A stretch of 64,000 bases of DNA from a virus: the IMG/VR virus record IMGVR_UViG_3300023276_001265; one strand, 5' to 3'. This document shows, one piece after another, positions 39,210 to 58,670 of the stretch. The notes below the pieces were generated by a model. The model did no database searches, was not told the DNA's origin, and saw nothing but the letters and a program-made list of their open reading frames with translations. Numbering within the stretch: position 1 is the stretch's first letter; every line of letters starts with the position of its first letter. The position numbers and the translations under genes were made by a program.

Positions 39210-41015
39210 ATGTCGACCACGCTAATTACTGAGCGTCGTGTTCTGATCGACAACCAGGGCGTAGCGCAACTCGCGGCGTCCATCGTTGAATCGGAGGACG
39301 GCGGAGACAAGAAGCTCTTCGCAGAAGGCAAGATCGGACACTGCGACACCCCAACAGCTAACGGGCGCATCTACCCCACTCGACTCATGAACCGTGAGTT
39401 GGACCGCCTTCAGACACGCATCGATGAGTCGTCTCTCTACGCAGCCGTTGATCACCCAGGCGATGGCAAGAGTCGTATCCGCGACACCGGTGCGATCATC
39501 CGTGCCCTCCGCATCGAATCTGACGGAACGATCTTCGGCAAGTTCCAGATCATTGAAGAGACCGACCACGGCCGCAACCTGGCCGCAATTCTTCGCGCTG
39601 GCGGCGCCGTTGGTGTTTCTAGCCGTGGCCTCGGGTCGACCCGCCCACACCACGAGTCCGGCAAAGAGATCGTTGGTGAGGACTTCCGCCTCGTCGCGTT
39701 CGACTTCGTCCTCGACCCCGCAGTCTCCACCGCCTACCCCAAGTTCTTCTCCGAATCAGATGAGGGCATCGCCGAGAACGTCACCTCAGACGATCTTCGC
39801 GCCAAGTTCCCTAGCTTGATCAACTCGATTGAGGAGCAGGCACTCAGCATTGGATCTTCGACCACCGTCGAGGCGATGCGAGTCGAGATGGAGCAAGACG
39901 TCCAGAAGGCACTTGCGGCGAGTCGTGAGACCCTCCGTGAGGACTTCAAGGTCGAGCTCTACCCAGTGGTCGTCAAGGAGCTGAAAGAAGACTTCGCGGC
40001 CAAGCTGGTTCGGGCAACCGCTGGTATCCGCGAAGAGGTCGAAGCCGTCGTCCGCTCTGAGATGGCAGCGGATCCACAGGTCGCTGGCGCCAAGCTCGCT
40101 CTGGAGCAGATCGCCAAGCTCGTGATCCCCTTCAACCCTCCCGTCGACGTCAAGAAGGTCATTGACGAGAAGCATGAGGAAGTTCAGAGCCTCTCCCAGA
40201 ACATCAAGGGCTACCAGGCCAAGCTCGCAGAAGCTGCGGCTGAGAAGGCCGAAGCTGTCGAGCACGCCCGTAACCTCGGCTTCCGCCTCTACGTCTCCGA
40301 GATCACTGCGGGCCGCAGCGATGCGACCACGATCAAAGAGATGGTCGGCGACATTGCCCTTATTACCGACGTCGAGGTTCTTCAGCAGCGCGTTGAGACG
40401 GCGATCAACTCTGCCGACCAGGCTTTGGAAGAGGCGAAATCTGCGGTCCGCGAAGAGCGCGACACTGAGCTCAAGGTTGAGCAGCAGAAGGCCAAGCTCG
40501 CCCAGAAGCGTGCGGACCGTCTCAAGGAAGAAGACTCCGAACTGCGCAAGCAGATGTCAGCTCTCGCTGAGCGCCTTGAAGAGGGCCTCGCCAGTAAGGA
40601 TCGAACGATCTCTAACCTGGCCCAGCAGAACGACGAGATGCAGCAGCGCCTTGGACGGGCCAATCAGCTCGCTGCACAGATGGAGGATCGCTCCTACGCG
40701 TCCACCCGTCTGGCCGGTCACCCAAACCGTCGAGAGCTCCTGGGCCGCATCGAAAGCGGCGAGGTTCGCGGCAAAGAACGAATCAATCAAATCGCCGAAC
40801 ACTCCGACTGGAGTGCGGACGAAATGGGCGCCAAAGAGCGCGTCCGTACGTTCTTCGGCTCAGGCCGGGAGTTCGCCCCCGATCAGGATCGCCGTCGTCA
40901 AGAAGTGATGAACGAGCAGTCCGGCGGTCGTGGAACCCCAGTCCCCAACCTCGAAGGAATGGACATCTCCATGGAGGAGATCAGGACTTTGGGATCTGCA
41001 GGTCGGCGCAGGTAG
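39210..41015 (+). CDS. Prohead protease (T4 gp21-like) fused to a long coiled-coil scaffold (gp22-like)
   Basis: ANGRIYP; VDHPGD; GRNLAAIL..GVSSRGLGS; DFRLVAFDFVLDPA; then ~400 aa of coiled coil. Confidence 0.9.
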   Translation: MSTTLITERRVLIDNQGVAQLAASIVESEDGGDKKLFAEGKIGHCDTPTANGRIYPTRLMNRELDRLQTRIDESSLYAAVDHPGDGKSRIRDTGAIIRALRIESDGTIFGKFQIIEETDHGRNLAAILRAGGAVGVSSRGLGSTRPHHESGKEIVGEDFRLVAFDFVLDPAVSTAYPKFFSESDEGIAENVTSDDLRAKFPSLINSIEEQALSIGSSTTVEAMRVEMEQDVQKALAASRETLREDFKVELYPVVVKELKEDFAAKLVRATAGIREEVEAVVRSEMAADPQVAGAKLALEQIAKLVIPFNPPVDVKKVIDEKHEEVQSLSQNIKGYQAKLAEAAAEKAEAVEHARNLGFRLYVSEITAGRSDATTIKEMVGDIALITDVEVLQQRVETAINSADQALEEAKSAVREERDTELKVEQQKAKLAQKRADRLKEEDSELRKQMSALAERLEEGLASKDRTISNLAQQNDEMQQRLGRANQLAAQMEDRSYASTRLAGHPNRRELLGRIESGEVRGKERINQIAEHSDWSADEMGAKERVRTFFGSGREFAPDQDRRRQEVMNEQSGGRGTPVPNLEGMDISMEEIRTLGSAGRRR

Positions 41016-41073: not shown

Positions 41074-42510
41074 ATGATGTTTCAAGCAAGACAAATGCTG
41101 ACAGAGAACATGGATGGTGTTGCTCTGTCGGACGACAGTGTGGTCGGCGCCTACACGCGCAAGTGGGCCCCGGTACTAGAGGGCATGGAGCACGAGATCG
41201 CGGATTTCGTTCCTCCAGGCCATACCTCCTACGTGAAGAGCATCGCTGCCTTCATGCTGGAAAACGAGAGTAAGCACCTTCGCCGTCTCTCTGAGGAAAC
41301 CCGCGCCTTGTCGGTCGGCCCATTCCTCAAATTCGTTTTCCCCGTTATCAGGCGAACCGCGATTCGCTTGGTTGCAACCTCGATCGCATCGGTCCAGCCC
41401 ATGACGGGCCCGATCGGTGGCATCGCGTTCTACCGTCCTCGCTACGCTTCTGACAAGGGTCAGATCACGGCTGGCACGGAGATGAACAAGAACTTTAACC
41501 GCTGGTATTCCAGCAACTTCATCGACGGCGAGCCGTTCGGCACCGGCGATGGCGTTACTGCTACCTTCACGGGTGCCCTCAAGTGGCCTCCAGTGATCGG
41601 CGGAACGGTTCAGATTCGCACCCAGGCTGGCGGAACGGCTGTCCTCGCGGTTGACGCCGGTGGCACCTTCACCGCTCTGGCTGGCGCCATGGCTGGTGGT
41701 TCTGGAACCATCAACTACACCACGGGCACCGTCACCCTCAACTTCGGAACCGCGCCTGCGCTCGGTGACACGGTCGAGGTCTTCTACCGGTACAACAACG
41801 AGCTCAACGCTCGTATCCCGGAAGTTCAGCTGGACATCACGATCCAGGAGATCCAGGCCGAGAGCCGCAAGCTCAAGAGCCTCGCCAGCGTCGAAGCCGC
41901 TGATGACCTCCGCGCCCTCTGGGGCCGTGACGTCGATGCGGACCTGGTCGCCCAGATGTCCGATGAGATGACCGCTGAAATCGATCGCGAGATCGTCGGC
42001 ACGATTCTTAACGGTGTCGAGTCTGCCGCCATTGTCCCTTGGGACCGTGCGACACCTTCGGCCGTTTCGGATCCTGAGCACCTCAAGTCGCTCGTGATCC
42101 GCATGTCGACTGCCTCGCAGGTCATTCACCGTCGCACCCAGCGTGCACCGGCCAACTGGGCGATCACCTCGTCTGAGGTCGCTGCTCTTCTGGAGACGAT
42201 GGAAGGCTTCTCGGCGATTGACGAAGGTCACGTCTACCAGGGCGGCATCAGCAAGGCTGGTGTTCTCAACCGCAAGTGGGTCATCTACGTTGATCCTGTC
42301 TTCCCGCAAGACAAGATCCTCATGGGGTATCAAGGACCAAGCATCCTCGATACGGGCGTCATCTACTCGCCCTACATCCCGATGGAGATCACGCCGAACT
42401 TCGTTGATCCAAATGACATGTCGCTGAGGCGTGCCATCCGGACCCGACACAAGATCTCGATGGTTCGTCCTGAATTCTTTTCTATGGTTAACATCACAAA
42501 CCTTGTCTAG
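41074..42510 (+). CDS. Major capsid protein (T4 gp23-like)
   Basis: KWAPVLEG; SVQPMTGPIGGI; AESRKLK; EAADDLRA; EIDREI; YSPYIP; RTR motifs. Confidence 0.95.
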   Translation: MMFQARQMLTENMDGVALSDDSVVGAYTRKWAPVLEGMEHEIADFVPPGHTSYVKSIAAFMLENESKHLRRLSEETRALSVGPFLKFVFPVIRRTAIRLVATSIASVQPMTGPIGGIAFYRPRYASDKGQITAGTEMNKNFNRWYSSNFIDGEPFGTGDGVTATFTGALKWPPVIGGTVQIRTQAGGTAVLAVDAGGTFTALAGAMAGGSGTINYTTGTVTLNFGTAPALGDTVEVFYRYNNELNARIPEVQLDITIQEIQAESRKLKSLASVEAADDLRALWGRDVDADLVAQMSDEMTAEIDREIVGTILNGVESAAIVPWDRATPSAVSDPEHLKSLVIRMSTASQVIHRRTQRAPANWAITSSEVAALLETMEGFSAIDEGHVYQGGISKAGVLNRKWVIYVDPVFPQDKILMGYQGPSILDTGVIYSPYIPMEITPNFVDPNDMSLRRAIRTRHKISMVRPEFFSMVNITNLV

Positions 42511-42584: not shown

Positions 42585-43445
42585 CTACAGGTGTTTCCAG
42601 GATCGCTGATATTTGATGTCGCCGATGGTAGCCGAGTGGACGCCGAACTCTTTGGCCAAGACGATGTTCTTCTCGCCGGAATTCAATCGCTCGCGGATTG
42701 CTATTACGTCCTCCGGCTGCAGCTTAGCCTTTCCGGCAGATGCGCCGCGTGCCTTTCGGCCTCGGCCACGCGCATACATGTCCTCAAGGTTCTTGCGCTG
42801 TGTCCCGCCGACTAGGTGCTGTGGGTTCACGCACCACGGTTCATCACATTCGTGAAGAACGAACAGTCCGTGCCCATATCCATTCGCGAGGGCGTAGCTG
42901 ATCTTGTGGGTATCGACCGTTTTCCCGGAGATCCGAAGCACTCCATAGCCTCGACCATCAGCGAACTGATTCTTCCTGGTGGCACCGATCCATAGCCAGC
43001 ACTCGTCTGGGGCTCCTTTATCGACGTAGGACCAGAACCTGTCCTCGTCAGGACCAGTGAGCTCAGGGATGGGCTTAGTAGGTCTGTGCGGCCTGTAGAC
43101 CTTCGGCTTGGCCGTGCCCTTACGCCAGTGGCGGCCCGCAGCCACCATCTGCTGCATATTTTGTAGGTGCGTTCCAGGGCTCAGGTGAGCAGGATTGCAG
43201 CAGGACCTAACGTGGCAGCTGTGGAGCGCGTCTAAGGGCCCCAGGACCTTACCGTTGCCGAGGATGTAGGCCACGCGGTGCGCTCGGTAGAGCTTTTTCC
43301 TGACCCTCCAGAGGCCATACCCGTGGGCCTTGCTCTTGGCGATCCACGGCCAGCACTGATCGGGCCGCAGTTTCTGCACCTTAGCCCAGAATCGTGCTTC
43401 TTCTTGAGATTCGAGCTCTAGGAGGATACTCTCGCTGGCAGCCAT
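42585..43445 (-). CDS. HNH homing endonuclease with two tandem HNH (His-Cys box-like) domains and a C-terminal HTH
   Basis: RFWxxV..CWxW..GYG..HxxxY..LHxCxxxxCxNPxHL, twice; LAKEFGV..WKH. Confidence 0.9.
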   Translation of the reverse strand: MAASESILLELESQEEARFWAKVQKLRPDQCWPWIAKSKAHGYGLWRVRKKLYRAHRVAYILGNGKVLGPLDALHSCHVRSCCNPAHLSPGTHLQNMQQMVAAGRHWRKGTAKPKVYRPHRPTKPIPELTGPDEDRFWSYVDKGAPDECWLWIGATRKNQFADGRGYGVLRISGKTVDTHKISYALANGYGHGLFVLHECDEPWCVNPQHLVGGTQRKNLEDMYARGRGRKARGASAGKAKLQPEDVIAIRERLNSGEKNIVLAKEFGVHSATIGDIKYQRSWKHL

Positions 43446-43529
43446 GTGGACCCTCTCCGGTCTGCTGGTCAGGGCCGGTATAAGGTGTTAGCGCACCTTT
43501 CCCGGCTCGTCCTATGGGTATAACACATC

Positions 43530-44540
43530 ATGGGCTTAATAGACATGACAGGGAAGAGGTACGGCAGTCTCCTAGTGGTCAAGCGAGTCGATCCTCCTCC
43601 GGAAGCTGGGCTCTACATAAGGCAGCACGCACACTGGCTGTGCGTATGCGACTGCGGCAACGAGAAGGTCATCCCAGGTCGCCACATGAGAAAAAATGGC
43701 GTCCGGACGTGCGGGCATGATCTTAGTGAACGTAGGTCGGCGGCCCGCCGAGACCACGGTCTGACATATACCGTGGAATGGTATACCTGGAGTGGGATGA
43801 GCGCTCGTTGCTACAACCCAAACAGTGCGTCTTATGGGCGGTATGGTGGTCGCGGAATCAGGGTGTGCGACCGCTGGAGGGGGAAGAATGGGTTTCGCAA
43901 CTTCTACGAAGACATGGGAAAGCGCCCGTCCGATAAGCATTCAATAAATCGCATCGACAACGACGGCAATTACACTCTCAAGAACTGCGAGTGGGCGACT
44001 GACACAGAACAGGCTAACAACAAGAGCTCCAACCGCCGACTTACACTTGGTGATGAAACGCACACACTCACCGAGTGGGCTCGCATAAAGAGCACGAAAC
44101 CGCACGTGTTCTACAATAGACTGAACGCGGGGTGGTCTGTTGAGAAGACGCTGACTACCCCGGCCCGCGTTAATGTCATGAACCGTAGGCTGACTGCAGA
44201 CGAAGTTCGCGAGATCAAGGCCTGGCTGCGAGACAATCCAGCCAAGAAGGACGTAGATATCGCCGGTGTCTATGGAGTCAGCATCGACACCATCGCGAAT
44301 GTTCGGACAGGAAAAGCATGGGACCACGTTGTAGTTGAGGGATTTACTCCGCACAGGAAGATCCCAGTCTTCTCTGGTGAGAACAACCCTCGCGCAAAGA
44401 TGAACTGGGCCAAGGTCAGAGAGGTTCGAGCACGAGCCGCACAGGGAGAGAAGGTGTCTGATCTAGCGGAAGAGTTCAAGGTGGGTCGCTGGATCATCAG
44501 TGACATCGTAAATCTACGAACATGGAAAGAGGCCAGATGA
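43530..44540 (+). CDS. HNH homing endonuclease with two C-terminal HTHs
   Basis: DMTGKRYG..WLCVCDCG; YGGRGIRVCDRW; SINRIDNDGNY..NCEWAT..QANN. Confidence 0.9.
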   Translation: MGLIDMTGKRYGSLLVVKRVDPPPEAGLYIRQHAHWLCVCDCGNEKVIPGRHMRKNGVRTCGHDLSERRSAARRDHGLTYTVEWYTWSGMSARCYNPNSASYGRYGGRGIRVCDRWRGKNGFRNFYEDMGKRPSDKHSINRIDNDGNYTLKNCEWATDTEQANNKSSNRRLTLGDETHTLTEWARIKSTKPHVFYNRLNAGWSVEKTLTTPARVNVMNRRLTADEVREIKAWLRDNPAKKDVDIAGVYGVSIDTIANVRTGKAWDHVVVEGFTPHRKIPVFSGENNPRAKMNWAKVREVRARAAQGEKVSDLAEEFKVGRWIISDIVNLRTWKEAR

Positions 44541-45207: not shown

Positions 45208-45846
45208 ATGCACCTCTCCCTTTCCTTTTCCCAAGACCTCTCCTATCGGCAAGAACTACGACTTGATCAACGACTCACACTGACCCAACGACTAATAGTC
45301 GAGGAGCGGATGCTCGCCAAGCGCCTGCTGCTAATCAAGAGAGTCCACGACATCAAATACAGGCTCTGGTGCGAGTGCGATAACTGCGGCCGGATGATCA
45401 AACCCATCGATATCCTGAAAGGCTTCAGCAACGACGTCACCGACACGAGGACTGCGTGCCCTAGATGCGGGAACAAGACACAGCCGAGACTGCTCGGCAA
45501 GGTCCAGGAGACAGGACGCTACAACTTCGCCTTCTATTGCCCAGAGCAGACGCTAGACAGGCTGGTGGACCTCGGCAGCGTGCCGTTCTATCAGCTTGAG
45601 CGAGACTACACTGATGTCCTACACTCTGCGGTCGTCCACTTCGGGAACATCTCCGCCGCCTACAAGCGGATCGGAATTGATTACGAAGTGCCAGCAATTC
45701 CGGACTGGAAACGGAGAGCTAGGCCGGTCCTTGGACTGCTGCCGGATAAGCAGATCGCCGACATAGTCGGAACAACCGTATACCAGATCAGAAAGCTGAG
45801 GAAGCGGTTCAAGATCGCCGGATTCAGCAAACGAAAGCTGCTGTGA
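45208..45846 (+). CDS. Zn-ribbon/HTH regulator with an RpoN Region I-like N-terminus
   Basis: LSLSFSQDLSYRQELRLDQRLTLTQRL; CDNC and CPRC; LPDKQIADIVG..RKLRKRFKI..SKRK. Confidence 0.65.
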   Translation: MHLSLSFSQDLSYRQELRLDQRLTLTQRLIVEERMLAKRLLLIKRVHDIKYRLWCECDNCGRMIKPIDILKGFSNDVTDTRTACPRCGNKTQPRLLGKVQETGRYNFAFYCPEQTLDRLVDLGSVPFYQLERDYTDVLHSAVVHFGNISAAYKRIGIDYEVPAIPDWKRRARPVLGLLPDKQIADIVGTTVYQIRKLRKRFKIAGFSKRKLL

Positions 45847-46000: not shown

Positions 46001-46609
46001 TTAGCGTGCCATCCGATCGACAACGTGAACGGTGCCGGTGAGCGGGATCCAGTCGGACAAGCGCTCTCCCTGGGAGTTCTTCAGAAGGTTATTTGACCGG
46101 ACCGCTGGCACTCCGTGAGCCGACCCTATCGTCACGTGCTTGTCCGGCTTGTTCGAGAGGTGGTTAAGTCCTCGAACTCGCCCTGCTTCGATCTCGTCGT
46201 TTGCAGCGCGGTGAGTTACGTGGAAGTTAACCTGCTGACCGATGTGCTTGGAGAGCGCTTTCTTATGTTCATCCGTAAGATGTTGACCTGGAGGAACAAT
46301 CGTCACATGATCGCCCTGCACATTGGCGTGCTTCGGAGGGACGCCATTAAGCAGTCGTTGCTTAGATTTAGGCGACAAGGTGACCGCGACGTGATGTCGA
46401 GCTGGATCGTAGTGCGCTAGACTCGGATGAACTGGCTGCGAGGGTGCGCCTGGCTTAGTTCTAGGCTCTCTAGGACGACTGGGCCCAACCGGACGCCTAT
46501 GCGGCGCCCCTGATGGAGATACGGCTTCAACTGAAACATGATTCAGCGGGGACCTGAATAACTGATTCAGCAGAATCAGAGGAGTTCTACCTGTACGAGG
46601 TCCTACCAT
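46001..46609 (-). CDS. 2H phosphoesterase (cyclic phosphodiesterase, tRNA-ligase CPD-like) with an N-terminal tag
   Basis: Two HxT motifs (DHVTI, KHVTI); AVRSNNLL..LTGTV; N-terminus GRTPLILL..LFRSPL. Confidence 0.75.
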   Translation of the reverse strand: MVGPRTGRTPLILLNQLFRSPLNHVSVEAVSPSGAPHRRPVGPSRPREPRTKPGAPSQPVHPSLAHYDPARHHVAVTLSPKSKQRLLNGVPPKHANVQGDHVTIVPPGQHLTDEHKKALSKHIGQQVNFHVTHRAANDEIEAGRVRGLNHLSNKPDKHVTIGSAHGVPAVRSNNLLKNSQGERLSDWIPLTGTVHVVDRMAR

Positions 46610-46660: not shown

Positions 46661-46746
46661 GATAGGCTAAGATGAGCTGATGCTCGCACAAAACTTCAAT
46701 CTTATTGAAGGTTCGCTCTACCGGTCCCCTCTAAGGCTGATGGAAG
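46661..46746 (+). repeat. 86-bp exact direct repeat, copy 1 (promoter plus tag codons)
   Basis: Identical to 47714-47799. Confidence 0.95.
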
Positions 46747-47690
46747 AGATGGACCCAGAGCTGAAAAAGGTGTGGGACCGTGGCTACCACCACGCCGTCA
46801 GAGGTACCGGGGTAAGCAATTTCGATTTTCAAGGTGAAGAATATAAAGCCTACAACGCTGGCTACGATTCTGGGATGAAGAGTCACGAGAAGATTCAGGT
46901 GGCGCCAGCTGAAGAGGGTGACGAAGTCTGGGATGCCTTTGACCGTAGTCAGCCTAAAACTCCCTGGTGGCATCGAGTCTTTAAGAATGATCGTAAAGAC
47001 TTCCAGTATGACATGTATGACTCAATTAGAGACGCCAGTGGGGATCTGGAGAGTAGTCAGGGGCACAAGTACGGGGAGCGGTTAGGGATCGGCGGCACTG
47101 CTATGGTCTTCAGGGGAGGATTGCACCCAGACCACGTCACTAAGCTCGAACTGGGTAACAGCGAAGCGCGACTAGCTGAATATGTAATGGGCAATGAAGC
47201 TCTTCGGAACAACGGAGCTTTACCTAATTTCCATGGGGTAACCCGCACGGAACACGCCCCGAGGGACAGGCGGATGGAACCTGGTCAGACTGTGCACGCC
47301 ATCCATCGCGAGGATCTCAAAGACGTTGAATTCAATGACGAAGAGGCGTGGCGCAAATATGTTAGCGCCGCAGGCAATTCAATCGGGACCCAGCAGTTCA
47401 ACTTTCACACTACTGCCGGGCGCGACAATATCGGTAGTCTTCTGGACCAGATCACCAGTGAACATCGACCGAATATGCACCCAGAGGATCTTGAGCAGTT
47501 CGATCAGTTTTCAGAGAACATAAAGTCAATGGCCCAAAACGGGATCCTGCCATCTGATATGTCCGTTACAGACAATGACCGCCATCTTGTGAACCTCGGT
47601 GTCAGACCATCCACGAACGAGGTCGTTGTCCGCGATATCGGCAGCTATCGTGTCGTAAGAAAGCCCTCTGGTCCGCGTCCGCAGATTTAG
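46680..47690 (+). CDS. Protein-kinase-fold protein with tag and RMF-like hairpin
   Basis: LGIGGTAMVF; VTKLE; IHREDL; PSDM....N; RDIG. Confidence 0.75.
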   Translation: MLAQNFNLIEGSLYRSPLRLMEEMDPELKKVWDRGYHHAVRGTGVSNFDFQGEEYKAYNAGYDSGMKSHEKIQVAPAEEGDEVWDAFDRSQPKTPWWHRVFKNDRKDFQYDMYDSIRDASGDLESSQGHKYGERLGIGGTAMVFRGGLHPDHVTKLELGNSEARLAEYVMGNEALRNNGALPNFHGVTRTEHAPRDRRMEPGQTVHAIHREDLKDVEFNDEEAWRKYVSAAGNSIGTQQFNFHTTAGRDNIGSLLDQITSEHRPNMHPEDLEQFDQFSENIKSMAQNGILPSDMSVTDNDRHLVNLGVRPSTNEVVVRDIGSYRVVRKPSGPRPQI

Positions 47691-47713
47691 AGCTAACCCC
47701 TCTGACTCTGAGA

Positions 47714-47799
47714 GATAGGCTAAGATGAGCTGATGCTCGCACAAAACTTCAATCTTATTGAAGGTTCGCTCTACCGGTCCCCTCTAAGGCTGATGGAAG
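47714..47799 (+). repeat. 86-bp exact direct repeat, copy 2
   Basis: Identical to 46661-46746. Confidence 0.95.
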
Positions 47800-48875
47800 G
47801 ATCCCCATCTGGATATTGGGACCATGAGAAAGAGGACTGGGTCCTTAACACCCCTAAGAGCCCCGCCACAGTGGCACGCGAAAAGGCAGAAATGGCTGCC
47901 AACACGAAGGCTTTTTACGACAACATGCGAGCGAATGAAACGCCCGAGGACAAGAAGAGACGCGCCCACGACCTCGGCTACCATCATGCTGTTCGCGGAC
48001 ATGAGCAGGACCCTAGCGCCTCCGATAACCAAGAGGCCTATATGGCCGGGTTCGAGGCGGCTAGAGGGAAGCACATTCCTGGGCTTCCTCCTAGCCTACG
48101 CCGAGACCTTGGCGGGCACTCCGGCATGCCCCGCTCCCGCCAGCACAAAAGTTTGATAGCGCTGCGTGACGCTTACGGTGATGATGGCCTTGCACGGACA
48201 ATGCGTGAGACGGGAGAGACCGCCGTTAAGGAACTAAAACAGTCTCGCCCAGAGCTCCAACTCGGTGATGAGCTCGGCTGCGGCAAGTTCGGCTGCGTCT
48301 ACAGGGCCCCTCCGCTATCAGATGGCACGGAGGCGATCATGAAGATCGATAGAGGCCTTGATGAAGGTGTGCTCGCTGAGGCCGTAATGCGAGACCCTGT
48401 CCTCAGCAAGCTCTCGTCCCTCCCGCGCTTTGGAAGCGTTACACCATTAAGTACTAATGACCCAGTGATGAAAAGAGGGGTAACGGCGATCCATCGAGAG
48501 AACCTTCGTGACCTTAACGCTGATGACCCACAGGAAAAGCAGCTTCAAGCATTCTTCGGGAATTGGTACCGGCCGTCCGGATTTGGACGGCATCTGAACG
48601 ACATTCTCCTTTACATGAGAGCAAAAAGGGGCATGGGTCGAGAGGACTACCTGCGCGGTTACGACGAGTTAATAAAGGAGGAACGACAACGGGCGGCTAA
48701 GAGCTTCGAGCCCCATGTAGGGGAACAGTTCGAGCGTGTCGCAGCTGATGTGCGTGAGCTTGTATCGCGAGGTGTGGTGCCGTGTGACCTTCATGAGGAT
48801 AATTGGGGAATTCGCCACAGTACCGGCGAGATTGTGATGCGCGATGTAGGCTGCGCTAAGGTGGCCGATGACTAG
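47733..48875 (+). CDS. Ser/Thr protein-kinase-like enzyme with tag and RMF-like hairpin
   Basis: LGCGKFGCVY; IMKI..E; CDLHEDNWG; RDVG. Confidence 0.85.
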   Translation: MLAQNFNLIEGSLYRSPLRLMEGSPSGYWDHEKEDWVLNTPKSPATVAREKAEMAANTKAFYDNMRANETPEDKKRRAHDLGYHHAVRGHEQDPSASDNQEAYMAGFEAARGKHIPGLPPSLRRDLGGHSGMPRSRQHKSLIALRDAYGDDGLARTMRETGETAVKELKQSRPELQLGDELGCGKFGCVYRAPPLSDGTEAIMKIDRGLDEGVLAEAVMRDPVLSKLSSLPRFGSVTPLSTNDPVMKRGVTAIHRENLRDLNADDPQEKQLQAFFGNWYRPSGFGRHLNDILLYMRAKRGMGREDYLRGYDELIKEERQRAAKSFEPHVGEQFERVAADVRELVSRGVVPCDLHEDNWGIRHSTGEIVMRDVGCAKVADD

Positions 48876-50526
48876 GCCCCTACTAAATCTGATAGAAGGG
48901 TCACTCTACCGGTCCCCTCTGAGACTGCTGGAAGCGCTGCAGGGCGAGCGTAAGCGCTCGTGGGACCTCGGCTATCGCCACTTCAAGAGATACGGGCCTG
49001 ATGGCTTCGATGACAGTAAGGCCGTTGACAAGGCCGCTTACAAGGTCGGATTTGATGGCGCAAGAGAGGAAGCCTCACAGGGAGCCTCACAAAGCGGACT
49101 TCGCGAGGTAAGCCGCGCTTCAGCTGTCCAAACACTGAAAGCCCTTCCGAGGGGTCTTCTGGCTGGATGGTTCAGGAACGCGGACCGAAAATACAAGGCC
49201 ATGCTCCTGAACCACATCAAGAAGAATCCAGAGGTTCGGAACGCCGGGCTGAACATCATGCACCAGGAATACCAGTCCATGACCAGGTCTCAGGTGCCGT
49301 TTGATGAGTTCATGGACACCCCCATCAGAATGTATCGAGGGGGTGGATCTCCTGCGGACGAGGCAGCCACGTCCTATTCCATGGACCAGAAGGTCGCCGA
49401 CTCATTCGTAGACCGGAAGGGCGCTGGTCTGTCTGTGATAGAGATCAAACCAAGGGATACCCTTGGGTCCTATCAGACCACCGCTGAGACTGAGGTTTTG
49501 ATTCCCTCGTGGGAAGGGAAGGACTTCATGGACGGTGACCCGCAGTTTAGAGGCCGCTCGAACTATGAGCTCCAGGCTGCAATCGGGGACACGAAGGCAG
49601 AACTGCGTCAGGACCGAAGCAGGTTGCCTGAGCTAAAAGCTCGCCACGGGGCCCTTCGTAACGAGCTCAAGGTTAGAGCTGCATCTGGCCATCAGAGCGT
49701 GAACCCTTACGATGTAGACCTGGAAGACGAGCGTAGAGAAGACGCGTGGGAACTAGGACGGTCTCACCGCGTAGACGGTCTCCCTAGAGACCCTGATCAC
49801 GCCGATGTCCGGCACAAAGGAGGTTATGAGGAAGGGTATAGTTCCGCCGAGATGAGTAGGGGTCAATTCCCCCAGGCTTCATGGGATGCAGGGCATGCTG
49901 CTGCCGATGCTGGAGAACTGGCCGATCGCCACCATCCGGACGTAGAAGATCCCAATGTCTACTTGAATGGCTACATGGCCAGTATGAATAAGCGCCCAGA
50001 TCCAAGGACGTCCGATCCGAACTATACCTATACGCCAGCCAACGATAACTATTACGACGTCGACCCAAATGATCACATCCAGCTACTAATTGATAGGTGG
50101 CAACAGGAGGAGCAGAGGCCTCGTCACGGAATAGGTCCTTTAATGGTTCCAGTTCACGAACTTTGGCCACACCGAGAGTATCTGCGCAACCCTGAACACA
50201 GTCGCGGTGGCGCCGAGCATTGGCATCAACTGAAGAAGAAGATGTCAGATGAGGGGTGGAATTCAGAGGAACCACTCGAACTACGCGTAGGCAGCGACGG
50301 GGGTGTGAAGATCGGCGAAGGAAATCACCGGCTGGCTATATCGAGAGAGCTAGGAGTCGACAAGGTGCCCGTTGATGTCGTCTACGATATAGGGCGTGTG
50401 ACGAAGAGTCCCCAGTCAACGCGTAGGACGCTCCCTAAAGAGAAGCCTCCAGAGTGGATGACCAAGGAACCCGGACCAGATAGCGATGAAGACCCGTTGA
50501 TTAAAGAACTATCAGGCCTATTTTGA
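48868..50526 (+). CDS. Multidomain protein: tag, RMF-like hairpins x3, ADP-ribosyltransferase-like domain, ParB/Srx domain
   Basis: R-S-E pattern MYRG..TSYS.D..VA..F..ETEVL; IGEGNHRLAISRELGVDKVPV. Confidence 0.75.
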   Translation: MTRPLLNLIEGSLYRSPLRLLEALQGERKRSWDLGYRHFKRYGPDGFDDSKAVDKAAYKVGFDGAREEASQGASQSGLREVSRASAVQTLKALPRGLLAGWFRNADRKYKAMLLNHIKKNPEVRNAGLNIMHQEYQSMTRSQVPFDEFMDTPIRMYRGGGSPADEAATSYSMDQKVADSFVDRKGAGLSVIEIKPRDTLGSYQTTAETEVLIPSWEGKDFMDGDPQFRGRSNYELQAAIGDTKAELRQDRSRLPELKARHGALRNELKVRAASGHQSVNPYDVDLEDERREDAWELGRSHRVDGLPRDPDHADVRHKGGYEEGYSSAEMSRGQFPQASWDAGHAAADAGELADRHHPDVEDPNVYLNGYMASMNKRPDPRTSDPNYTYTPANDNYYDVDPNDHIQLLIDRWQQEEQRPRHGIGPLMVPVHELWPHREYLRNPEHSRGGAEHWHQLKKKMSDEGWNSEEPLELRVGSDGGVKIGEGNHRLAISRELGVDKVPVDVVYDIGRVTKSPQSTRRTLPKEKPPEWMTKEPGPDSDEDPLIKELSGLF

Positions 50527-50548
50527 TACTCGCACAAACTTCAATCTT
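50524..50548 (+). pseudogene. Degenerate remnant of the tag-coding repeat
   Basis: TGATACTCGCACAAACTTCAATCTT versus TGATGCTCGCACAAAACTTCAATCTT (ATG>ATA, 1-nt deletion). Confidence 0.75.
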
Positions 50549-50553
50549 GTAGC

Positions 50554-50865
50554 CTATTTGAACTTGAGGTGGATCCGGTTACCAGTCTTCGGGTGTTCCC
50601 AGTAGTGGATCGTAACCTTACTCCCACCACTGGCCCGAGAGACGGCCTGACCTTTTAGGTGCCCCCTACGCTCGTCCTTACGGGTGCCAGGCTCGCCGCC
50701 TGGGTGAATGATGTGTTTACCCGTTCTGTTGTCCCGAAGGAATGACCCACCGTGTCCTGCCTGGACCGCACTTTTGAACATGTGCTCGTGGGTGTTGTTA
50801 GGCTCCTCACGGTAGGCCTGACCCTCGGCGATCAGACGAAGCGGAGATCGATGTAGCAGGGCCAT
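50554..50865 (-). CDS. Tagged miniprotein with a polymorphic-toxin-like C-terminus
   Basis: MALLHRSPLRLIAE; ends KVTIHYWEHPKTGNRIHLKFK. Confidence 0.65.
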   Translation of the reverse strand: MALLHRSPLRLIAEGQAYREEPNNTHEHMFKSAVQAGHGGSFLRDNRTGKHIIHPGGEPGTRKDERRGHLKGQAVSRASGGSKVTIHYWEHPKTGNRIHLKFK

Positions 50866-51748: not shown

Positions 51749-52789
51749 CTACGACCCATCTGCGAGAGCGTGCTTGGCCACGCTGGACTTGAGCTTATCG
51801 ATCTCAATGCACCACGTCTCCATGCCGTTGAGACCGGCGTCACGGCGCAGAGTTGGACTCTTGAACCGAATGGACTTCTGGGCGACACGGACGATGGTCC
51901 GCACCTGCCGAGGAGTGGTGGCGCCGAGATCACGCACGACGGCTCCTACGACCTGGAGCATCCCAGGGACGCAGTAGGCGCTCTTGCAGGACGCCACGAC
52001 GCGCTTGGAGATACAGCGTGTGACCTCACCCTTCTTTTCATCCGGGAACTTGCCAGGAGTCCACCGCTTGTCGGTAGTCCACATAGTGAGGATGGTCCGC
52101 ATTTGCGTAACGAAGGTCTCGGGAATGACCGCATCGTGGGCCACCTCGTCCCAATACTTGGTCGTCTTTCCGCCCAGGAGTCCGATCCCGAGGCGCTTGA
52201 TGTGCTCGTAGAAGGTGCTGTATTCGCTAGCCAGGTCACGGGTCAGCTTTGCGACCTCGTTGTTCGAGACCAGACCGATGAACTTCTTCGACACCTTCGT
52301 CGCCTTGGAGTTGTAGATCAAGAACAGGTATCGAGCCTGCTCAAGGGACTTCACGGTGATGGTGACTGCAGGAATGCTCAGGCCAGCCTGAAGGGCGCCC
52401 TTCAGACGATGCTGACCATCAATGCACCACCGCTTGAGTCCGCGCTCACCTTTGAGGCGGGCCAGGAGAATAGGCGGCACAACAGGCGTGGGAGAGTAGA
52501 GCATGAACGCCGCCACCTCGTTGACCTGCTTATTGGAGAGCTGGCGCTGAAATCCGCCCTCCGTAGAAGTCCACTGCTGGACCTGATTCATCTCAGCGAG
52601 CGTGAGGTCCTTATAGGCCTTGGGAAGTTGGCGCTTAATGGCAGCTTTCCTGAGCTTGGACATCTCGGAAGCAGAGAGGGGTTGAGGTCCCTTCCGCTTC
52701 TTTTTCTTCTTGGTCGTCTTTTTGGTCGCCTTCTTGGTGACCTTCTTCTTCTTCTTGGTCTTTTTCTTTGCCTTCTTCTTGGTAGCCAT
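51749..52789 (-). CDS. DGQHR (ParB/DndB-superfamily) protein with a Lys-rich histone-like N-terminal tail
   Basis: FQRQL..IDGQHRL..FLIYNS; MATKKKAKKKTKKKKK... Confidence 0.8.
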   Translation of the reverse strand: MATKKKAKKKTKKKKKVTKKATKKTTKKKKKRKGPQPLSASEMSKLRKAAIKRQLPKAYKDLTLAEMNQVQQWTSTEGGFQRQLSNKQVNEVAAFMLYSPTPVVPPILLARLKGERGLKRWCIDGQHRLKGALQAGLSIPAVTITVKSLEQARYLFLIYNSKATKVSKKFIGLVSNNEVAKLTRDLASEYSTFYEHIKRLGIGLLGGKTTKYWDEVAHDAVIPETFVTQMRTILTMWTTDKRWTPGKFPDEKKGEVTRCISKRVVASCKSAYCVPGMLQVVGAVVRDLGATTPRQVRTIVRVAQKSIRFKSPTLRRDAGLNGMETWCIEIDKLKSSVAKHALADGS

Positions 52790-52836
52790 AGGGCCCCTTT
52801 CGTTGTCAATCCTTATACCTGGATGCTTGGCCGCGA

Positions 52837-53208
52837 TTAAAGCATTGCCATCCAGTCGAGAACAGACATATCAATGACCGCCTGACGGGCCAGACTCCAG
52901 GCTGATCTCATGTTCCACTTACCTGACTTCAGGATATCGATGGGGCGGTCCACGTGTTTACTGTGGAATGCCCCTCCCACCGTGACCGTCCACTCTTTGA
53001 GGGCATCGTCGCACGTAAGCTCAATCCCACAGGGCTCTGAGGTGGCATTGATGATCACGTCTGGGTTGTTATCGATCTCGTGATCCTCGTAGGACATCTT
53101 CTCTACGAGATAGAGTTTGATGGGCGCATTGTCTCGTTCACCTTGTGCGACGAACCTGACCCAACCTATAGCTGCTTTCATCGGTCCCAAGTCGGTATGT
53201 CCTATCAC
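52837..53208 (-). CDS. Hypothetical protein with C-terminal SVLDWMAML motif
   Basis: 123-aa ORF. Confidence 0.55.
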   Translation of the reverse strand: MIGHTDLGPMKAAIGWVRFVAQGERDNAPIKLYLVEKMSYEDHEIDNNPDVIINATSEPCGIELTCDDALKEWTVTVGGAFHSKHVDRPIDILKSGKWNMRSAWSLARQAVIDMSVLDWMAML

Positions 53209-53243
53209 GACATGGTTATACCGACTTAGGCGCTAGCAGCTAC

Positions 53244-54653
53244 TTAGTTCCCACTCTCACGACCGCCGCCAGGGGCGCGACGTCCGCCTCGTCTACGGCT
53301 GTTCGTGCGACCACGACCGCCCCCCTCATGGGGGCGGTGGCTGGTGCGGTTGCTGCCACGATTTCTGCCGCTTTGGGGATTATCATCTGCCCCGCCGCCT
53401 TGGGGGTCCTTACGCTGTCCAGTTCTAGCCCAACGCGGCTCGCCACGACCCGCAGGACCTGAGAATTCTCCAGGAGATGTATCTGGTTCTGGACGGGACG
53501 CTTGCCGGTCGCCCCTACCTTGGCGGGTGAATCTCGCATGGTAGCGATCGCGATCCTGCTGTCGAGCACTGGCTCTCTCTTGAGTATCCTTCTCATGCTC
53601 TGCCGAACTACCGTCAAACTGAGGGTAGTCTGGGTGTCCTGGGTAACCTGGATGGTTCTCGTAACCGCCTATGACCGGAGCACTATCGTCGTCGTAGTCA
53701 TCGTAGTCGAAGCGTCGATCGTCGTAGTCATAATCGTCATCGTAGTCATCGTAGTCGGCATAGTGGTAGCGATCGAGGTCATCGTCATCCCCGTTAGCCA
53801 GACGTGCCGCTCTCTGTGCTTCCCTGTCAGCCGCTTCAACGTCTCTCTGGCGTTGATCTATTACCCTTTTCCTCTTAGCCGCCCTAAGCGTTGTCTTCCG
53901 ATCAGGAATTCTTTCGACGTCCGCGTCGGACAGACCACTGATGTCCGAGTTCTTCTCACGACCACTAAGCGTCGACCGAACATACTTTTCATCGTAACCA
54001 CGATCTGTGTAGTGGTTGACAATTCGGTCGCGTTCCGCCTGGCGTTCCCGCCCGTAACGGCCAATCCCTGGATTACCCTGTGTAAACGCGTGCCCAATGT
54101 GTTCTGGGCTATGAGGAAGAGCGCGAGGCGTCTCGTTGTCATGCGGCTCGTAGATGCGCGGTCCGTGTGGGTGATCCCAGTTAATCTTGCTCCCCTTCTT
54201 GGAATAGATGGGCGAGTTTTCTACCTCTGGAGTTCGGGCTATTTCTGCCCGCTTAGTCCAGCGATCCGATGCTGGGTTAGCGTCATGGTCCCAACTGACT
54301 TTATTCTCCGGCTCCATCTCTTCAGGACTTTTGGTGTTGTATTGATGTTTATCCGGGTCGTCATCACCAATACAGGTGTTGTGCTGTGTTGCCTTAGAAC
54401 CTGAAGGGCACTTACCACCGTTCCACTGAGGACGAGTGAACCAACCCTTACCGTTGAAGCGCCAGTTGTGTTCTTTATCTGGAGGACCAGCACGCCTCTT
54501 CTCATGACCGGCCCGCTGTTGGGCGTGCGTATCTGTTGGATCTGCGGCTGCTCGACGCTCAAGTGCGCGGAGCCCACGATCCATCTCGCTGAGCAATTTC
54601 AACGGTGATCGACCGATGGAATCTAGAAGGATGAGGCTGGATCTGGTGAGCAT
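53244..54653 (-). CDS. Tagged disordered protein with D/Y-rich and R/G-rich tracts
   Basis: MLTRSSLILLDSIGRSPLKLLSE; TATACT 7 nt before the ATG. Confidence 0.75.
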   Translation of the reverse strand: MLTRSSLILLDSIGRSPLKLLSEMDRGLRALERRAAADPTDTHAQQRAGHEKRRAGPPDKEHNWRFNGKGWFTRPQWNGGKCPSGSKATQHNTCIGDDDPDKHQYNTKSPEEMEPENKVSWDHDANPASDRWTKRAEIARTPEVENSPIYSKKGSKINWDHPHGPRIYEPHDNETPRALPHSPEHIGHAFTQGNPGIGRYGRERQAERDRIVNHYTDRGYDEKYVRSTLSGREKNSDISGLSDADVERIPDRKTTLRAAKRKRVIDQRQRDVEAADREAQRAARLANGDDDDLDRYHYADYDDYDDDYDYDDRRFDYDDYDDDSAPVIGGYENHPGYPGHPDYPQFDGSSAEHEKDTQERASARQQDRDRYHARFTRQGRGDRQASRPEPDTSPGEFSGPAGRGEPRWARTGQRKDPQGGGADDNPQSGRNRGSNRTSHRPHEGGGRGRTNSRRRGGRRAPGGGRESGN

Positions 54654-54716
54654 GATGCTCAGTATAACTCCTTGTTGGTCCCCTATTGTAGGTAGAAAGG
54701 ACTAGATAGGAGCCCT

Positions 54717-54929
54717 ATGAGCAATGACGCAGACGCACGTAGACGGCAGGCCATAGCCAAGCTCAGCAGCGCAATAATGATCATAACCCACCTAGTCGGC
54801 GAGCCTGAGCTATCTGACTACTACAAGGAGCGACTCAGTGAGGTCTTAGAGAGCCTCACTAGATCCCGATACCTACTCGTTGAGCATGAGGAGCCGGATG
54901 GGATCCTAGACGAACTAGCGCAACTATGA
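54717..54929 (+). CDS. Small helical protein with C-terminal GILDELAQL motif
   Basis: AGGAG SD; 70 aa. Confidence 0.6.
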   Translation: MSNDADARRRQAIAKLSSAIMIITHLVGEPELSDYYKERLSEVLESLTRSRYLLVEHEEPDGILDELAQL

Positions 54930-54966
54930 AGTTCAGACCAGTGCTTCCTTTGGGTATACTTTGGTC

Positions 54967-56604
54967 ATGTCCAAGCATCACCTCAATCTGATCGAAGGCT
55001 GTCTCTACAGGACACCTCTCATTTTAGAGGCGAAATCGCCGACCGACATGTCCTGGGACCTCGGCTTCCACCACGCCAATCGTGGCAAGAAGGCTGAACC
55101 TAACGGCCCCACCGTCAGCGACGGTGACGCCTACATGGCTGGGTATAACCACTCCAGGCAAAAGGTGACAGCCGCACAGCCGGATCACGGTCAAGGTGGC
55201 GACCAAGAACTACGTCCCTCTAACTGGGCCGATAGTCGACCAGAACAGGACATCAAACCCAGTATGAGACTCAGTCTCCACGATGTGCCTAAATCCGTGC
55301 TAACCCTTGCGAAGGCCCTCGAAGCGGCTGGAGGGCGTGCGCTTGTGGTTGGTGGAGCGGTACGTGACAAGATCATCGGCAGCTCTCCGAAGGATTGGGA
55401 CGTCGAAGTCTACGGGATGGACCCGGACAAGTTGACGGAGGAGCTTTCCAAGCTAGGTCGAGTTGACGCCGTTGGAAAGAAGTTCGGCATCCTGAAAATC
55501 GTCATTGGGGACGAGGACTTTGATGTGTCGATCCCTAGACGTGAGAATAAGGTGGGCCAAGGACACAAAGGCTTCATCCCCGTCCCAGACCCGACAATGA
55601 CGATCAGTGAGGCGGCTAAGCGGCGCGACGTCACCATCAACACCGTGTCGATGGATCCGTTCACCGGGGATGTCTACGACCCCTACAACGGGGTCGATGA
55701 CATCAACAACCGCGTACTAAGGGCCACGGACCCTGAAGCGTTCGCCGAAGACGCGGTTCGGATACTTCGCGGTGCCCAGTTTGCCGCCCGATTTCAACTC
55801 TCTGTAGATCCTGAGACGATGCAGCTAATGGCGGACGCCGCTCCGGAACTCGCCCTTGAGCCCCCGGAGCGCGTTGGAGATGAATGGCGGAAGCTCCTGC
55901 TAAAGAAGGGCGTAAAGCCGTCTATTGGCATGGAGGTGCTAAAGCGGTCTGGCGCCCTGAAGATCCTTCACCCCGATCTCGCCTCTCAGGCTGATAGTGA
56001 GTCCTGGGAAAGGCTTAAGCAGGTCACAGATCGTTCGATTGGCCTCACCGCCGAGTCGGAAGAAGACTTCAAGGTAATGGTTCGTTTTGCGTCAGTGTTC
56101 CACAACACTAATCCGCGTGGAATGGCCAAGATGCTCCACTCAAGTCTGAGGATTCCTAAAAACTCTGGGCAAGCGATGAGGATCGAGCGACTGGTCGGAG
56201 CGCTACCTCACGCTAACAGCGAGATGTCGGACGCTGATATCCGACATCTGTCCAAGCGTCTTAGCCCTAAAAATATCCAAGACCCGACTAACACATCAAT
56301 CGAAGCCTTCGCTCTCCTGGTCGGGAGTGTTCGCGGTGAAGAAGAAGGAGCACAGCTCCTTCAAAGGGCAGAAAATCTAGGTGTGAGCAAAGCGCCACCT
56401 GTTGAGCTCTTCACAGGAGATCACCTGAACAGTTTCGGGGTTAAGCCCAGTCGGCAGTTCGGAGAGATCCTTAGGCAGGTCTACAAATTGCAGCTAGACG
56501 GCCAGGTTGTAGACCTTGATAGCGCGAAGGTAGCCGCCAGGCAACTCGCCGGGCTTCCTCCAGAAGATCCAAGCCAGCAGCGAGAATCGCTCAACCTGAT
56601 CTAA
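54967..56604 (+). CDS. cca: Class II tRNA nucleotidyltransferase (CCA-adding enzyme) with tag and RMF-like hairpin
   Basis: VGGAVRD..KDWDVE; RRDVTIN; EDAVRILRGAQFAARF; PERVGDEW. Confidence 0.88.
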   Translation: MSKHHLNLIEGCLYRTPLILEAKSPTDMSWDLGFHHANRGKKAEPNGPTVSDGDAYMAGYNHSRQKVTAAQPDHGQGGDQELRPSNWADSRPEQDIKPSMRLSLHDVPKSVLTLAKALEAAGGRALVVGGAVRDKIIGSSPKDWDVEVYGMDPDKLTEELSKLGRVDAVGKKFGILKIVIGDEDFDVSIPRRENKVGQGHKGFIPVPDPTMTISEAAKRRDVTINTVSMDPFTGDVYDPYNGVDDINNRVLRATDPEAFAEDAVRILRGAQFAARFQLSVDPETMQLMADAAPELALEPPERVGDEWRKLLLKKGVKPSIGMEVLKRSGALKILHPDLASQADSESWERLKQVTDRSIGLTAESEEDFKVMVRFASVFHNTNPRGMAKMLHSSLRIPKNSGQAMRIERLVGALPHANSEMSDADIRHLSKRLSPKNIQDPTNTSIEAFALLVGSVRGEEEGAQLLQRAENLGVSKAPPVELFTGDHLNSFGVKPSRQFGEILRQVYKLQLDGQVVDLDSAKVAARQLAGLPPEDPSQQRESLNLI

Positions 56605-58178: not shown

Positions 58179-58670
58179 ATGATATTACCGAAAACCCCCA
58201 GATACGGCACCTTCGATCAACTCATGGAGAATCGTCCGGGGCACGGCGGCTACGGAGATGTGACCTGGAACGTAGGACCTCACTCATCCCCCATCCAAGA
58301 AGGTAGGGTCGTGTGGGCAGATGTGGGACGTCTGCTGACCATGATTCCTAAGAAGAAGTTGGCTGAGTCGATTGATCGATTCGTGAACTCGGCCAGTCAA
58401 TCCATGGTTCGCGGTGACGTTGTAGAGGTCCCAAAGATCGTATTTGAGGGAATGGCGGCTGTGATCGACCCAGCGCACCATGGCGCTATGGTCGCCGCAA
58501 GTAGGCGAGGTGCGACCCGCGTACCAATCGTCTACCAGGAGGGCTCTCCTGGCGTCCTAGGGCTAGGCGGTGTCGAGCCTATCTCTCCGGGTCGCCCTGA
58601 CCAGAGCCCTGACCAGAAGTGGCGCTGGAACGGTCGTAGCTGGTACACCAACGACAGCTTCGGCAAATAG
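58179..58670 (+). CDS. Degenerate ParB-like protein with a Trp-rich tail
   Basis: VIDPAHHGAMVAASRRGATRVPI; SPDQKWRWNGRSW; N-terminal TFDQLME. Confidence 0.55.
   Translation: MILPKTPRYGTFDQLMENRPGHGGYGDVTWNVGPHSSPIQEGRVVWADVGRLLTMIPKKKLAESIDRFVNSASQSMVRGDVVEVPKIVFEGMAAVIDPAHHGAMVAASRRGATRVPIVYQEGSPGVLGLGGVEPISPGRPDQSPDQKWRWNGRSWYTNDSFGK

Follow-up and report, generated by a model that had tools for sequence, protein, structure and literature searches.

The proteins IPI-III and Alt of phage T4 enter the prohead via N-terminal leaders that are removed by gp21 (PMC9026906, PMC3012670), a protease that cuts after a Glu behind a short hydrophobic motif and whose cleavage logo includes L-I-E (PMC9026906). 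The internal proteins (IPs) of the T-even phages form a diverse set in which the capsid-targeting sequence (CTS) alone is conserved (PMC3012670). The propeptides of IPII and IPIII are identical, and the CTS was proposed as a possible evolutionary means of loading varied proteins into capsids (PMC9026906). Here we describe a comparable arrangement in a viral DNA stretch of 64,000 nucleotides (nt) from the IMG/VR record IMGVR_UViG_3300023276_001265, the whole of which is referred to as the window. Neighbouring genes of this stretch begin with a repeated leader that consists of a promoter-like box, the start codon and a tag of ~22 residues, and two of these leaders are identical over 86 nt. Our analysis points to gene conversion of the leader and to the phage capsid as the probable destination of the tagged proteins.

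The closest counterpart is found in T4 itself (genome NC_000866), where ipIII and ipII have an exact 47-nt repeat in common, made up of 14 nt of upstream sequence with a ribosome site, the ATG, 10 CTS codons and 2 nt. The T4 repeat stops right after the Glu of the cleavage site, identity amounts to 84% over 74 nt, and a weaker similarity continues for ~90 nt farther upstream. A conserved palindromic element is also located upstream. The window shares with T4 that a regulatory region together with tag DNA is repeated on tandem genes and that the repeat ends at the Glu, after 47 nt in T4 and after 86 nt here. It also shares a T4-type head and an N-terminal leader ending in Glu on unrelated mature parts, and every feature that can be tested in silico fits the CTS. 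However, the window tag has 22 residues instead of 10, its sequence is unrelated, and a second helical module (WDLGYHHAxRG…AYxxGY) usually follows 3' of it. Furthermore, a ribosome site is part of the T4 repeat, but none is present in the window repeat, which has a -10-like box at 6 nt from the ATG. The cargos are mostly large enzymes (kinase-like, nucleotidyltransferase, ParB-like, SET, HEAT) in place of small basic proteins, although T4 provides with Alt an example of a large enzyme as capsid cargo. Thus the phenomenon belongs to a kind already known from the T-even phages, with differences in the tag, the second homology module, the promoter arrangement and the enzyme-rich cargo.

Results

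Genes 1 and 2 of the window (Table 1) start with the same DNA. Positions 46661-46746 and 47714-47799 show 100% identity over 86 nt, in accordance with the first-pass annotation of this stretch, and represent the longest direct repeat within the full window. Each exact copy comprises 19 nt upstream of the ATG (46680 and 47733, respectively) followed, from the ATG on, by 22 codons and 1 further base. It includes the -10-like hexamer TAAGAT, which ends 6 nt upstream of the ATG, and the tag peptide ends with Leu-Met-Glu, identity breaking off 1 base past the Glu codon; the extent assigned earlier, from the hexamer through the start and the 22 tag codons to just after the Glu codon, was therefore correct. 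The diverged copy that had been noted at the gene start at 48868 was also recovered. This third leader (48849-48934) has an overall identity of 62% and the exact 17-mer CTCTACCGGTCCCCTCT in common with copies 1 and 2, and it encodes almost the same peptide with 6 synonymous differences. A broken copy had been placed over the stop codon of gene 3, and indeed 50524-50548 corresponds to the first 26 nt of the leader with 1 substitution (ATG to ATA) and one A missing; the similarity fades after about codon 8. This remnant overlaps the TGA of gene 3, and 5 nt separate it from the stop codon of 50554-50865, a convergently oriented gene. A search pattern that was composed to fit all three copies gave 3 matches, while 0 of 100 shuffled sequences reached 3 (shuffle mean 0.00). 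A short match at 45301-45317 was taken as chance.

Beyond the tag, strong divergence is seen between genes 1 and 2. Of 287 aligned codons, 89 encode the same residue, and among the 85 degenerate ones of these the same codon is used in 30. Inside the tag the same codon is used in 20 of 20 degenerate positions, and the 19 upstream non-coding bases are identical, too. At the background rate, 20 out of 20 would be expected with a chance of ~0.35^20, roughly 1e-9. The identity of the leaders has sharp borders on both sides. Synonymous sites vary freely in the tags of other genes and of orthologs, with variants such as TAC/TAT, CGG/AGG, TCC/TCT/TCA, CCT/CCC/CCA and CTA/CTG/CTC, and since this holds for orthologous tags, selection at the nucleotide level does not explain the identity. 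An RNA element as the conserved feature was rejected, since the leader RNA folds no better than shuffled controls (z = -0.40) and has no Rfam match. As neither selection on the peptide nor selection on the nucleotides accounts for the identical leaders, a recent non-reciprocal transfer between them is the probable cause. Gene conversion of the leader with promoter box and tag is well supported by these sequence comparisons, both here and in relatives (see below). This part of the earlier interpretation, recombination or conversion at the tag, therefore stands.

Some further features of the leaders were observed. A unique spacer of 23 nt separates the stop of gene 1 from the second leader. In both exact copies a mini-frame of two codons, ATG AGC TGA (46671-46682 and 47724-47735), overlaps the real ATG with its TGA (TGATG), and it may be accidental. 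The promoter-like part of the gene 3 leader (GCTAAGGTGGCCGATG) lies within the final codons of gene 2 (48849-48875), and the C-terminal residues of the gene 2 product are unlike those of every relative. Genes 2 and 3 appear to have lost the spacer between them, with the result that gene 2 stops inside the next leader.

The tag has the core NLIEGSLYRSPLRL[LM]E. In 14 aligned tags L13, R15, L18 and E22 are invariant, and at the motif level the tag ends with L-[LM]-E or I-L-E in 14 of 14 sequences, in agreement with the gp21 rule of a hydrophobic residue, any residue and a Glu ahead of the cut (PMC9026906). The window holds four strong (long) tags and four weaker ones, which are short or decayed. 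Metagenomic homologs of the kinase-like genes carry the same tag followed by the module KRSWDLGYHHAxRG…AYxxGF. A profile of the 60-residue tag module retrieved just 37 representative clusters among 1.84 billion proteins, nearly always with the module at the N-terminus and on proteins of 91 to 853 residues. Pfam matches within these clusters included PolyA_pol, HEAT repeats, SET, ART-PolyVal, ABC1 and Arr-ms, while the majority had no match. The cargos behind the tag are thus unrelated to each other and comprise kinase-like, PolyA_pol, SET, HEAT, ART-PolyVal and ParB-like proteins. In most tagged proteins the second module (W-D-L-G-Y-H-H-A-x-R-G … A-Y-x-x-G-Y/F), in the following the WDLGYHH module, is found 3' of the tag. 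In the gene 3 product it recurs at residues 293-330 and 342-375 as an interdomain linker.

Relatives of the tagged genes on other metagenomic contigs provide a second case of conversion. The contigs L003 and L006 stem from different samples, and their orthologous kinase-like genes differ by 31 mismatches in nt 1-131, but by 1 mismatch in nt 132-383. A stretch of 52 nt in this first part of the L003 gene (nt 16-67) matches the tag of L006 gene 2, a gene with an unrelated cargo, at 100% identity, whereas the next 48 nt show 19% identity to that gene. We interpret this mosaic as a conversion tract between tags. Since the downstream limit of the tract falls in the WDLGYHH module, this module probably acts as a second homology patch. 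Tandem tagged genes occur in L006 and L012 as well. Two tandem paralogs of L012 are near-identical for ~80 nt, from the upstream region into the gene start, before their sequences diverge.

Gene content and order vary among the relatives, contrary to the fixed arrangement that the first-pass annotation had named as an argument against its reading. L004 has kept a block homologous to 51749-56604, with one kinase-like gene compared to two in the window and unrelated neighbours on both sides. In L007 a kinase-like gene lies 3' of the nucleotidyltransferase gene, in L012 an additional tagged gene of 214 aa lies 5' of it, and L003 has a homolog of 50554-50865 with flanks unlike those of the window. 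The protein P0019, encoded on a 106.8-kb contig, equals the gene 3 product through about residue 271, from where a kinase-like domain replaces the ParB-like half; judged from the sequence, this is a very recent domain swap in a near-identical relative. Both halves of gene 3 are also encoded separately, the N-terminal half as a tagged protein of 288 aa (P0031) and the ParB-like half behind its own tag (P0015), and gene 3 is therefore probably a fusion of two once-separate tagged genes. In another relative, P0010, the order is SET domain, tag and kinase-like domain, and the 853-aa protein P0017 bears two tag modules. The positions of the tag in P0010, P0016, P0017 and P0037 suggest that these are fused tagged genes, the products of which the head protease might separate. 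A partial leader (…ATAGAATGCTCTGATGCGC…) was observed at L012:3915-3975, 5' of the 214-aa gene with its decayed tag. It resembles the promoter box and the first codons of the L003 leader, followed by a short frame with a stop, and appears to be a second remnant akin to 50524-50548.

The promoter-like box is strongly associated with the tag. In 9 of 9 tagged genes, but in only 1 of 37 untagged genes of the window, the ATG is preceded at a distance of 5-7 nt by a TAnnnT hexamer (Fisher p = 9e-9). Most of the untagged genes have a Shine-Dalgarno sequence instead, and the tagged genes are without a ribosome-binding site at working distance. The -10 box that had been assigned to the repeat is thus backed by its position-specific enrichment rather than by a transcript. 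TATACT occurs three times in 64 kb, both strands considered, each time 6-7 nt upstream of the ATG of a tagged gene. The relatives are alike in this respect, with CTAGAAT, GTATACT, TATGAT or TATAGT followed by 5-7 nt and the ATG. No -35 element is conserved between the leader copies, and no terminator-like site was found at the repeats. The late promoters of T4 consist of a -10 element only. Since the hexamer is 5-7 nt from the ATG and no ribosome-binding site is present at working distance, the sequence suggests that the tagged genes have -10-only promoters of the T4 late type and leaderless or nearly leaderless mRNAs.

Head genes of T4 type are present in the window. The predicted prohead protease matches Pfam Peptidase_S77 (E 6.9e-15), the family of T4 gp21, and the predicted major capsid protein matches Gp23 (E 3.2e-58; phrog_138); tail and baseplate genes are also encoded. 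The capsid protein has an identity of at most 35% to that of any sequenced phage, and the DNA of the locus gave no match to 50,697 phage records. From the two head protein families, the low capsid identity and the missing DNA match, the source can be classified as a distant, uncultured member of the T4 superfamily with a T4-type head. The gene 2 product, P0002, is also encoded on a contig of 167,811 bp, indicating a phage of ~168 kb. A degenerate DNA pattern of the tag found nothing among the IMG/VR viral contigs, and the tag profile revealed no relative in one genome per prokaryote species, hence no lead to a host or prophage. Two HNH homing-endonuclease genes (42585-44540) are located directly 3' of the capsid gene and ~2 kb 5' of the tagged array. 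Double-strand breaks made by such endonucleases could stimulate local recombination.

The first two tagged genes had been described as highly diverged kinases, which is in agreement with our results as far as the fold is concerned. Their products, P0001 and P0002, are paralogs with 29% identity. The 12 members of the family have a Gly-rich loop, an invariant Lys, D-x4-N and an R-D-x-G motif in common, and K204, D352, N357 and D371 are invariant in the family alignment. The family profile gave weak matches (E 0.01) to N-lobes of kinases in the PDB. P0002 was modelled by AlphaFold (pLDDT 73) with a disordered tag (pLDDT ~30), and this model had exclusively protein-kinase-like top matches in Foldseek, namely APH(2''), VRK2, CK2 and PknB (E 4e-5 to 3e-4), and one relative of the kinase-like genes matches Pfam ABC1. 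Since the model matches only protein-kinase-like folds and a relative carries ABC1, the label kinase-like is supported for the predicted products of genes 1 and 2. The C-terminal part of the gene 3 product is ParB-like (phrog_3147). Its N-terminal half shows a pattern of the type R…S-x-S…E-x-E, resembling the R-S-E motif of ADP-ribosyltransferases; it has no Pfam match even at E = 1 and no sequence match in the PDB, the Atlas gave weak leads only (DRAT, TM 0.44), and a 4-sequence alignment yielded no usable AlphaFold model (pLDDT 39.5). A putative identity as ADP-ribosyltransferase could not be confirmed. Apart from the tag described here, another type of N-terminal leader is encoded at 58179-58670 on the plus strand. 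It reads …YGTFDQLME before an N and thus also ends with L-M-E; P0008 (…YGDFDRLME-N) and P0013 (…YGNFRKLME-G) have the same type, and a -10-like hexamer is located 6 nt upstream of the ATG of the window gene. The positions of the features are compiled in Table 1.

Table 1 Leaders, tagged genes, modules and head genes of the window
Feature	Position	Strand	Remarks
Leader copy 1	46661..46746	+	Exact 86-nt repeat; heads gene 1
Leader copy 2	47714..47799	+	100% identical to copy 1; heads gene 2
Leader copy 3, diverged	48849..48934	+	62% identity; promoter-like part (GCTAAGGT) within the last codons of gene 2
Truncated leader remnant	50524..50548	+	ATG to ATA, 1-nt deletion, about the first 8 codons only
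Gene 1, P0001, 336 aa	46680..47690	+	Tag, helical-hairpin module (WDxGYHH), kinase-like domain
Gene 2, P0002, 380 aa	47733..48875	+	Tag, ~50-aa insert, WDxGYHH module, kinase-like domain
Gene 3, P0003, 552 aa	48868..50526	+	Tag, WDxGYHH module, N-terminal half with R-S-E-like motif, ParB-like C-terminal half
Fourth long-tag gene, tRNA nucleotidyltransferase / poly(A) polymerase family	54967..56604	+	GGTATACT ends 6 nt upstream of the ATG
103-aa gene, short tag form (MALLHRSPLRLIAE)	50554..50865	-	-10-like hexamer 6 nt upstream of the ATG; homolog in L003
469-aa gene, short or decayed tag (…GRSPLKLLSE)	53244..54653	-	TATACT 7 nt upstream of the ATG
202-aa gene, short tag (…FRSPL…)	46001..46609	-	Divergent from gene 1, 70-bp spacer; GGTATACT 7 nt upstream of the ATG
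Gene with shorter or decayed tag	16366-18216	+	One of the four weaker tags
WDLGYHH module sites	46773-46860, 47950-48060, 48960-49050, 55045-55150		In the window
Prohead protease, presumed tag-removing enzyme	39210..41015	+	Peptidase_S77, phrog_207
Major capsid protein, T4 gp23 family	41074..42510	+	Gp23

Discussion

The tag is most likely a capsid-targeting propeptide that is cut at the Glu by a gp21-type protease. This is the most economical reading because the phage combines an S77 protease with a Gp23 head, E22 is invariant, the cargos are varied and gp21 of T4 follows the same rule of cleavage. We propose that the leader would direct its protein to the prohead scaffolding core, where the gp21-type protease would cut it off after the invariant Glu, and the mature enzyme would ride in the virion and enter the next host together with the DNA. 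At the same time, promoter box, start codon and tag are a short unit of homologous DNA that recurs on neighbouring genes, and the recombination machinery of the phage now and then copies this unit from gene to gene. The 86-bp identity of genes 1 and 2 results from one such recent event and the L003/L006 tract from another. Together with the WDLGYHH module, the leader homology would probably also aid duplication, deletion, fusion and re-assortment of cargo genes, and the remnant at 50524-50548 would be the leftover of a further tagged gene. We give this explanation as a whole, i.e. a T4-like tag of CTS type, a -10-only box, gene conversion of the leader and its aid to cargo re-assortment, a probability of about three in four.

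Several points weigh against it. The tag has no sequence similarity to the CTS of T4, and while packaging and cleavage are proven in T4, we infer both for this phage, as well as leaderless transcription. A simple sigma-70 scan detected neither a -35 element nor a standard two-hexamer promoter at the repeats. In a few relatives (P0010, P0016, P0017, P0037) the tag module is internal, and the T4 precedent does not extend to such proteins. Finally, the sole cargo swap seen at the strain level, that of P0019, breaks at a module border (about residue 271) and not at the tag.

Selection on DNA or RNA, acting on the promoter and the initiation region of a leaderless mRNA or on a regulatory RNA, could hold the 86 nt identical with no recent recombination. 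In favour of this, the block contains the position-specific -10-like box and the extreme 5' end of the presumed mRNA, and one Leu codon (CTC before TAC/TAT) is constant in nearly all tags. Orthologous and paralogous tags in the window and its relatives nevertheless have many synonymous differences, including the 6 of copy 3 in the same genome, the fold score and the Rfam search argue against a structured RNA, and the L003/L006 mosaic is a tract and no site-wise conservation. We therefore regard selection as an improbable cause. The first-pass annotation had also raised an assembly artefact; two strain variants of one gene could have been joined in tandem through the leader. Assemblers can be misled by repeats, and the sequence was assembled from a metagenome, but 86 bp are shorter than a typical read, and a false join would skip gene 1 instead of making a unique spacer of 23 nt. 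Moreover, P0001 and P0002 are each found letter for letter on 5 contigs, and the tandem tagged genes of L006 and L012 repeat the arrangement, which makes an artefact very hard to believe.

More weight has to be given to the recombination elements described for T4-type phages. PeSL elements contain promoters and recombine with one another (Arbiol et al. 2010, PMC2839356), and mini-circle intermediates were demonstrated (PMC2839356). As summarised in PMC2839356, Repoila et al. (1994) located PeSL-like elements at two plastic T-even IP loci, the plasticity of which they may cause. Like the leader, PeSLs are short, conserved, promoter-containing blocks beside variable genes in plastic T4-like regions (PMC2839356; Comeau et al. 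2014, PMC4122927), and they provide homology for a phage recombination system that needs <50 bp. PeSLs are, however, intergenic and consist of an early sigma-70-like -35/-10 pair, a stem-loop and a ribosome site, whereas the block of the window reaches 67 nt into the coding region. As it has no stem-loop (z = -0.40) and no -35/-10 pair, it is not a PeSL.

In analogy, crossovers at the tag, within one genome or between co-infecting phages, could be the main route by which whole cargo genes move in and out, and the identity of genes 1 and 2 would then mark a recent arrival. The first-pass annotation had favoured such an exchange and regarded the broken copy as the scar of a lost cargo. The relatives do differ in gene content and order, the tag DNA of L003 recurs unchanged in a second sample on an unrelated cargo (L006 gene 2), gene 2 has an atypical insert of ~50 aa directly after the tag, a remnant leader exists at 50524-50548, and PeSLs offer a precedent, as promoter-containing repeats of ~50-100 bp that excise and insert genes in T4-type phages (PMC2839356, PMC4122927). 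On the other hand, no pair of relatives was found with different cargos behind the same tag at the same position and with breakpoints at the tag. The event in L003/L006 moved a patch of the tag and not the cargo, the P0019 swap breaks near residue 271 of gene 3, and the repeats lack two features by which a PeSL is defined, a stem-loop and a -35/-10 pair of sigma-70 type. The remnant is a truncated leader, as had been claimed, but a crossover between two tags would leave a complete hybrid tag behind; the remnant therefore fits an illegitimate deletion rather than the crossover that had been assumed. Swapping of whole cargo genes through the tag is plausible as a process, but we consider it unlikely to be their main route. 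Gene conversion of the leader, with occasional help to re-assortment, accounts for the conversion tracts and is our preferred explanation.

Two further systems resemble the locus in parts. Polyvalent proteins are multi-domain effectors, presumed to accompany the DNA into the host (Iyer et al. 2017, PMC5512222). In agreement with this, one tag-bearing relative matches Pfam ART-PolyVal, gene 3 ends ParB-like, and domains are re-assorted between relatives; yet most domains of the window are encoded by separate, individually tagged genes, and gene 3 has only 2-3 modules. Polymorphic toxins, to which the arrangement had initially been compared, have a constant N-terminal delivery part and variable C-terminal payloads that are diversified by recombination (Zhang et al. 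2012, PMC3482391). The genes of the window are, in contrast, complete, with their own start and promoter-like box, and delivery would be via the capsid and not via a secretion system. Since neither promoterless spare cassettes nor small immunity-like genes were found between the genes of the array, this analogy is loose, and the T-even IP loci are a much closer precedent.

The locus leaves the understanding of how such systems work unchanged. What it adds is that the IP arrangement of the T-even phages, a reused address tag with the tag DNA as recombination handle, extends to a very distant, uncultured T4-like clade. It is conceivable, though rather doubtful at present, that the block of promoter box, start, tag and WDLGYHH module serves this clade as a general means of capturing and shuffling virion cargo, with the fused tagged genes as polyproteins that the head protease cuts at internal tags in the capsid. 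If so, any gene that recombines behind the block would become expressed and loaded into the capsid, and the phage would possess an integron-like system for building a kit of injected enzymes. Within the first seconds of infection, phage proteins from the capsid are already active, and this group is a likely source of enzymes for counter-defence and host take-over. The cargos found here are kinase-like proteins, an enzyme of the CCA-adding or poly(A)-polymerase type and ParB-like domains, and candidates for injected effectors can be listed from metagenomes simply by searching for the tag.

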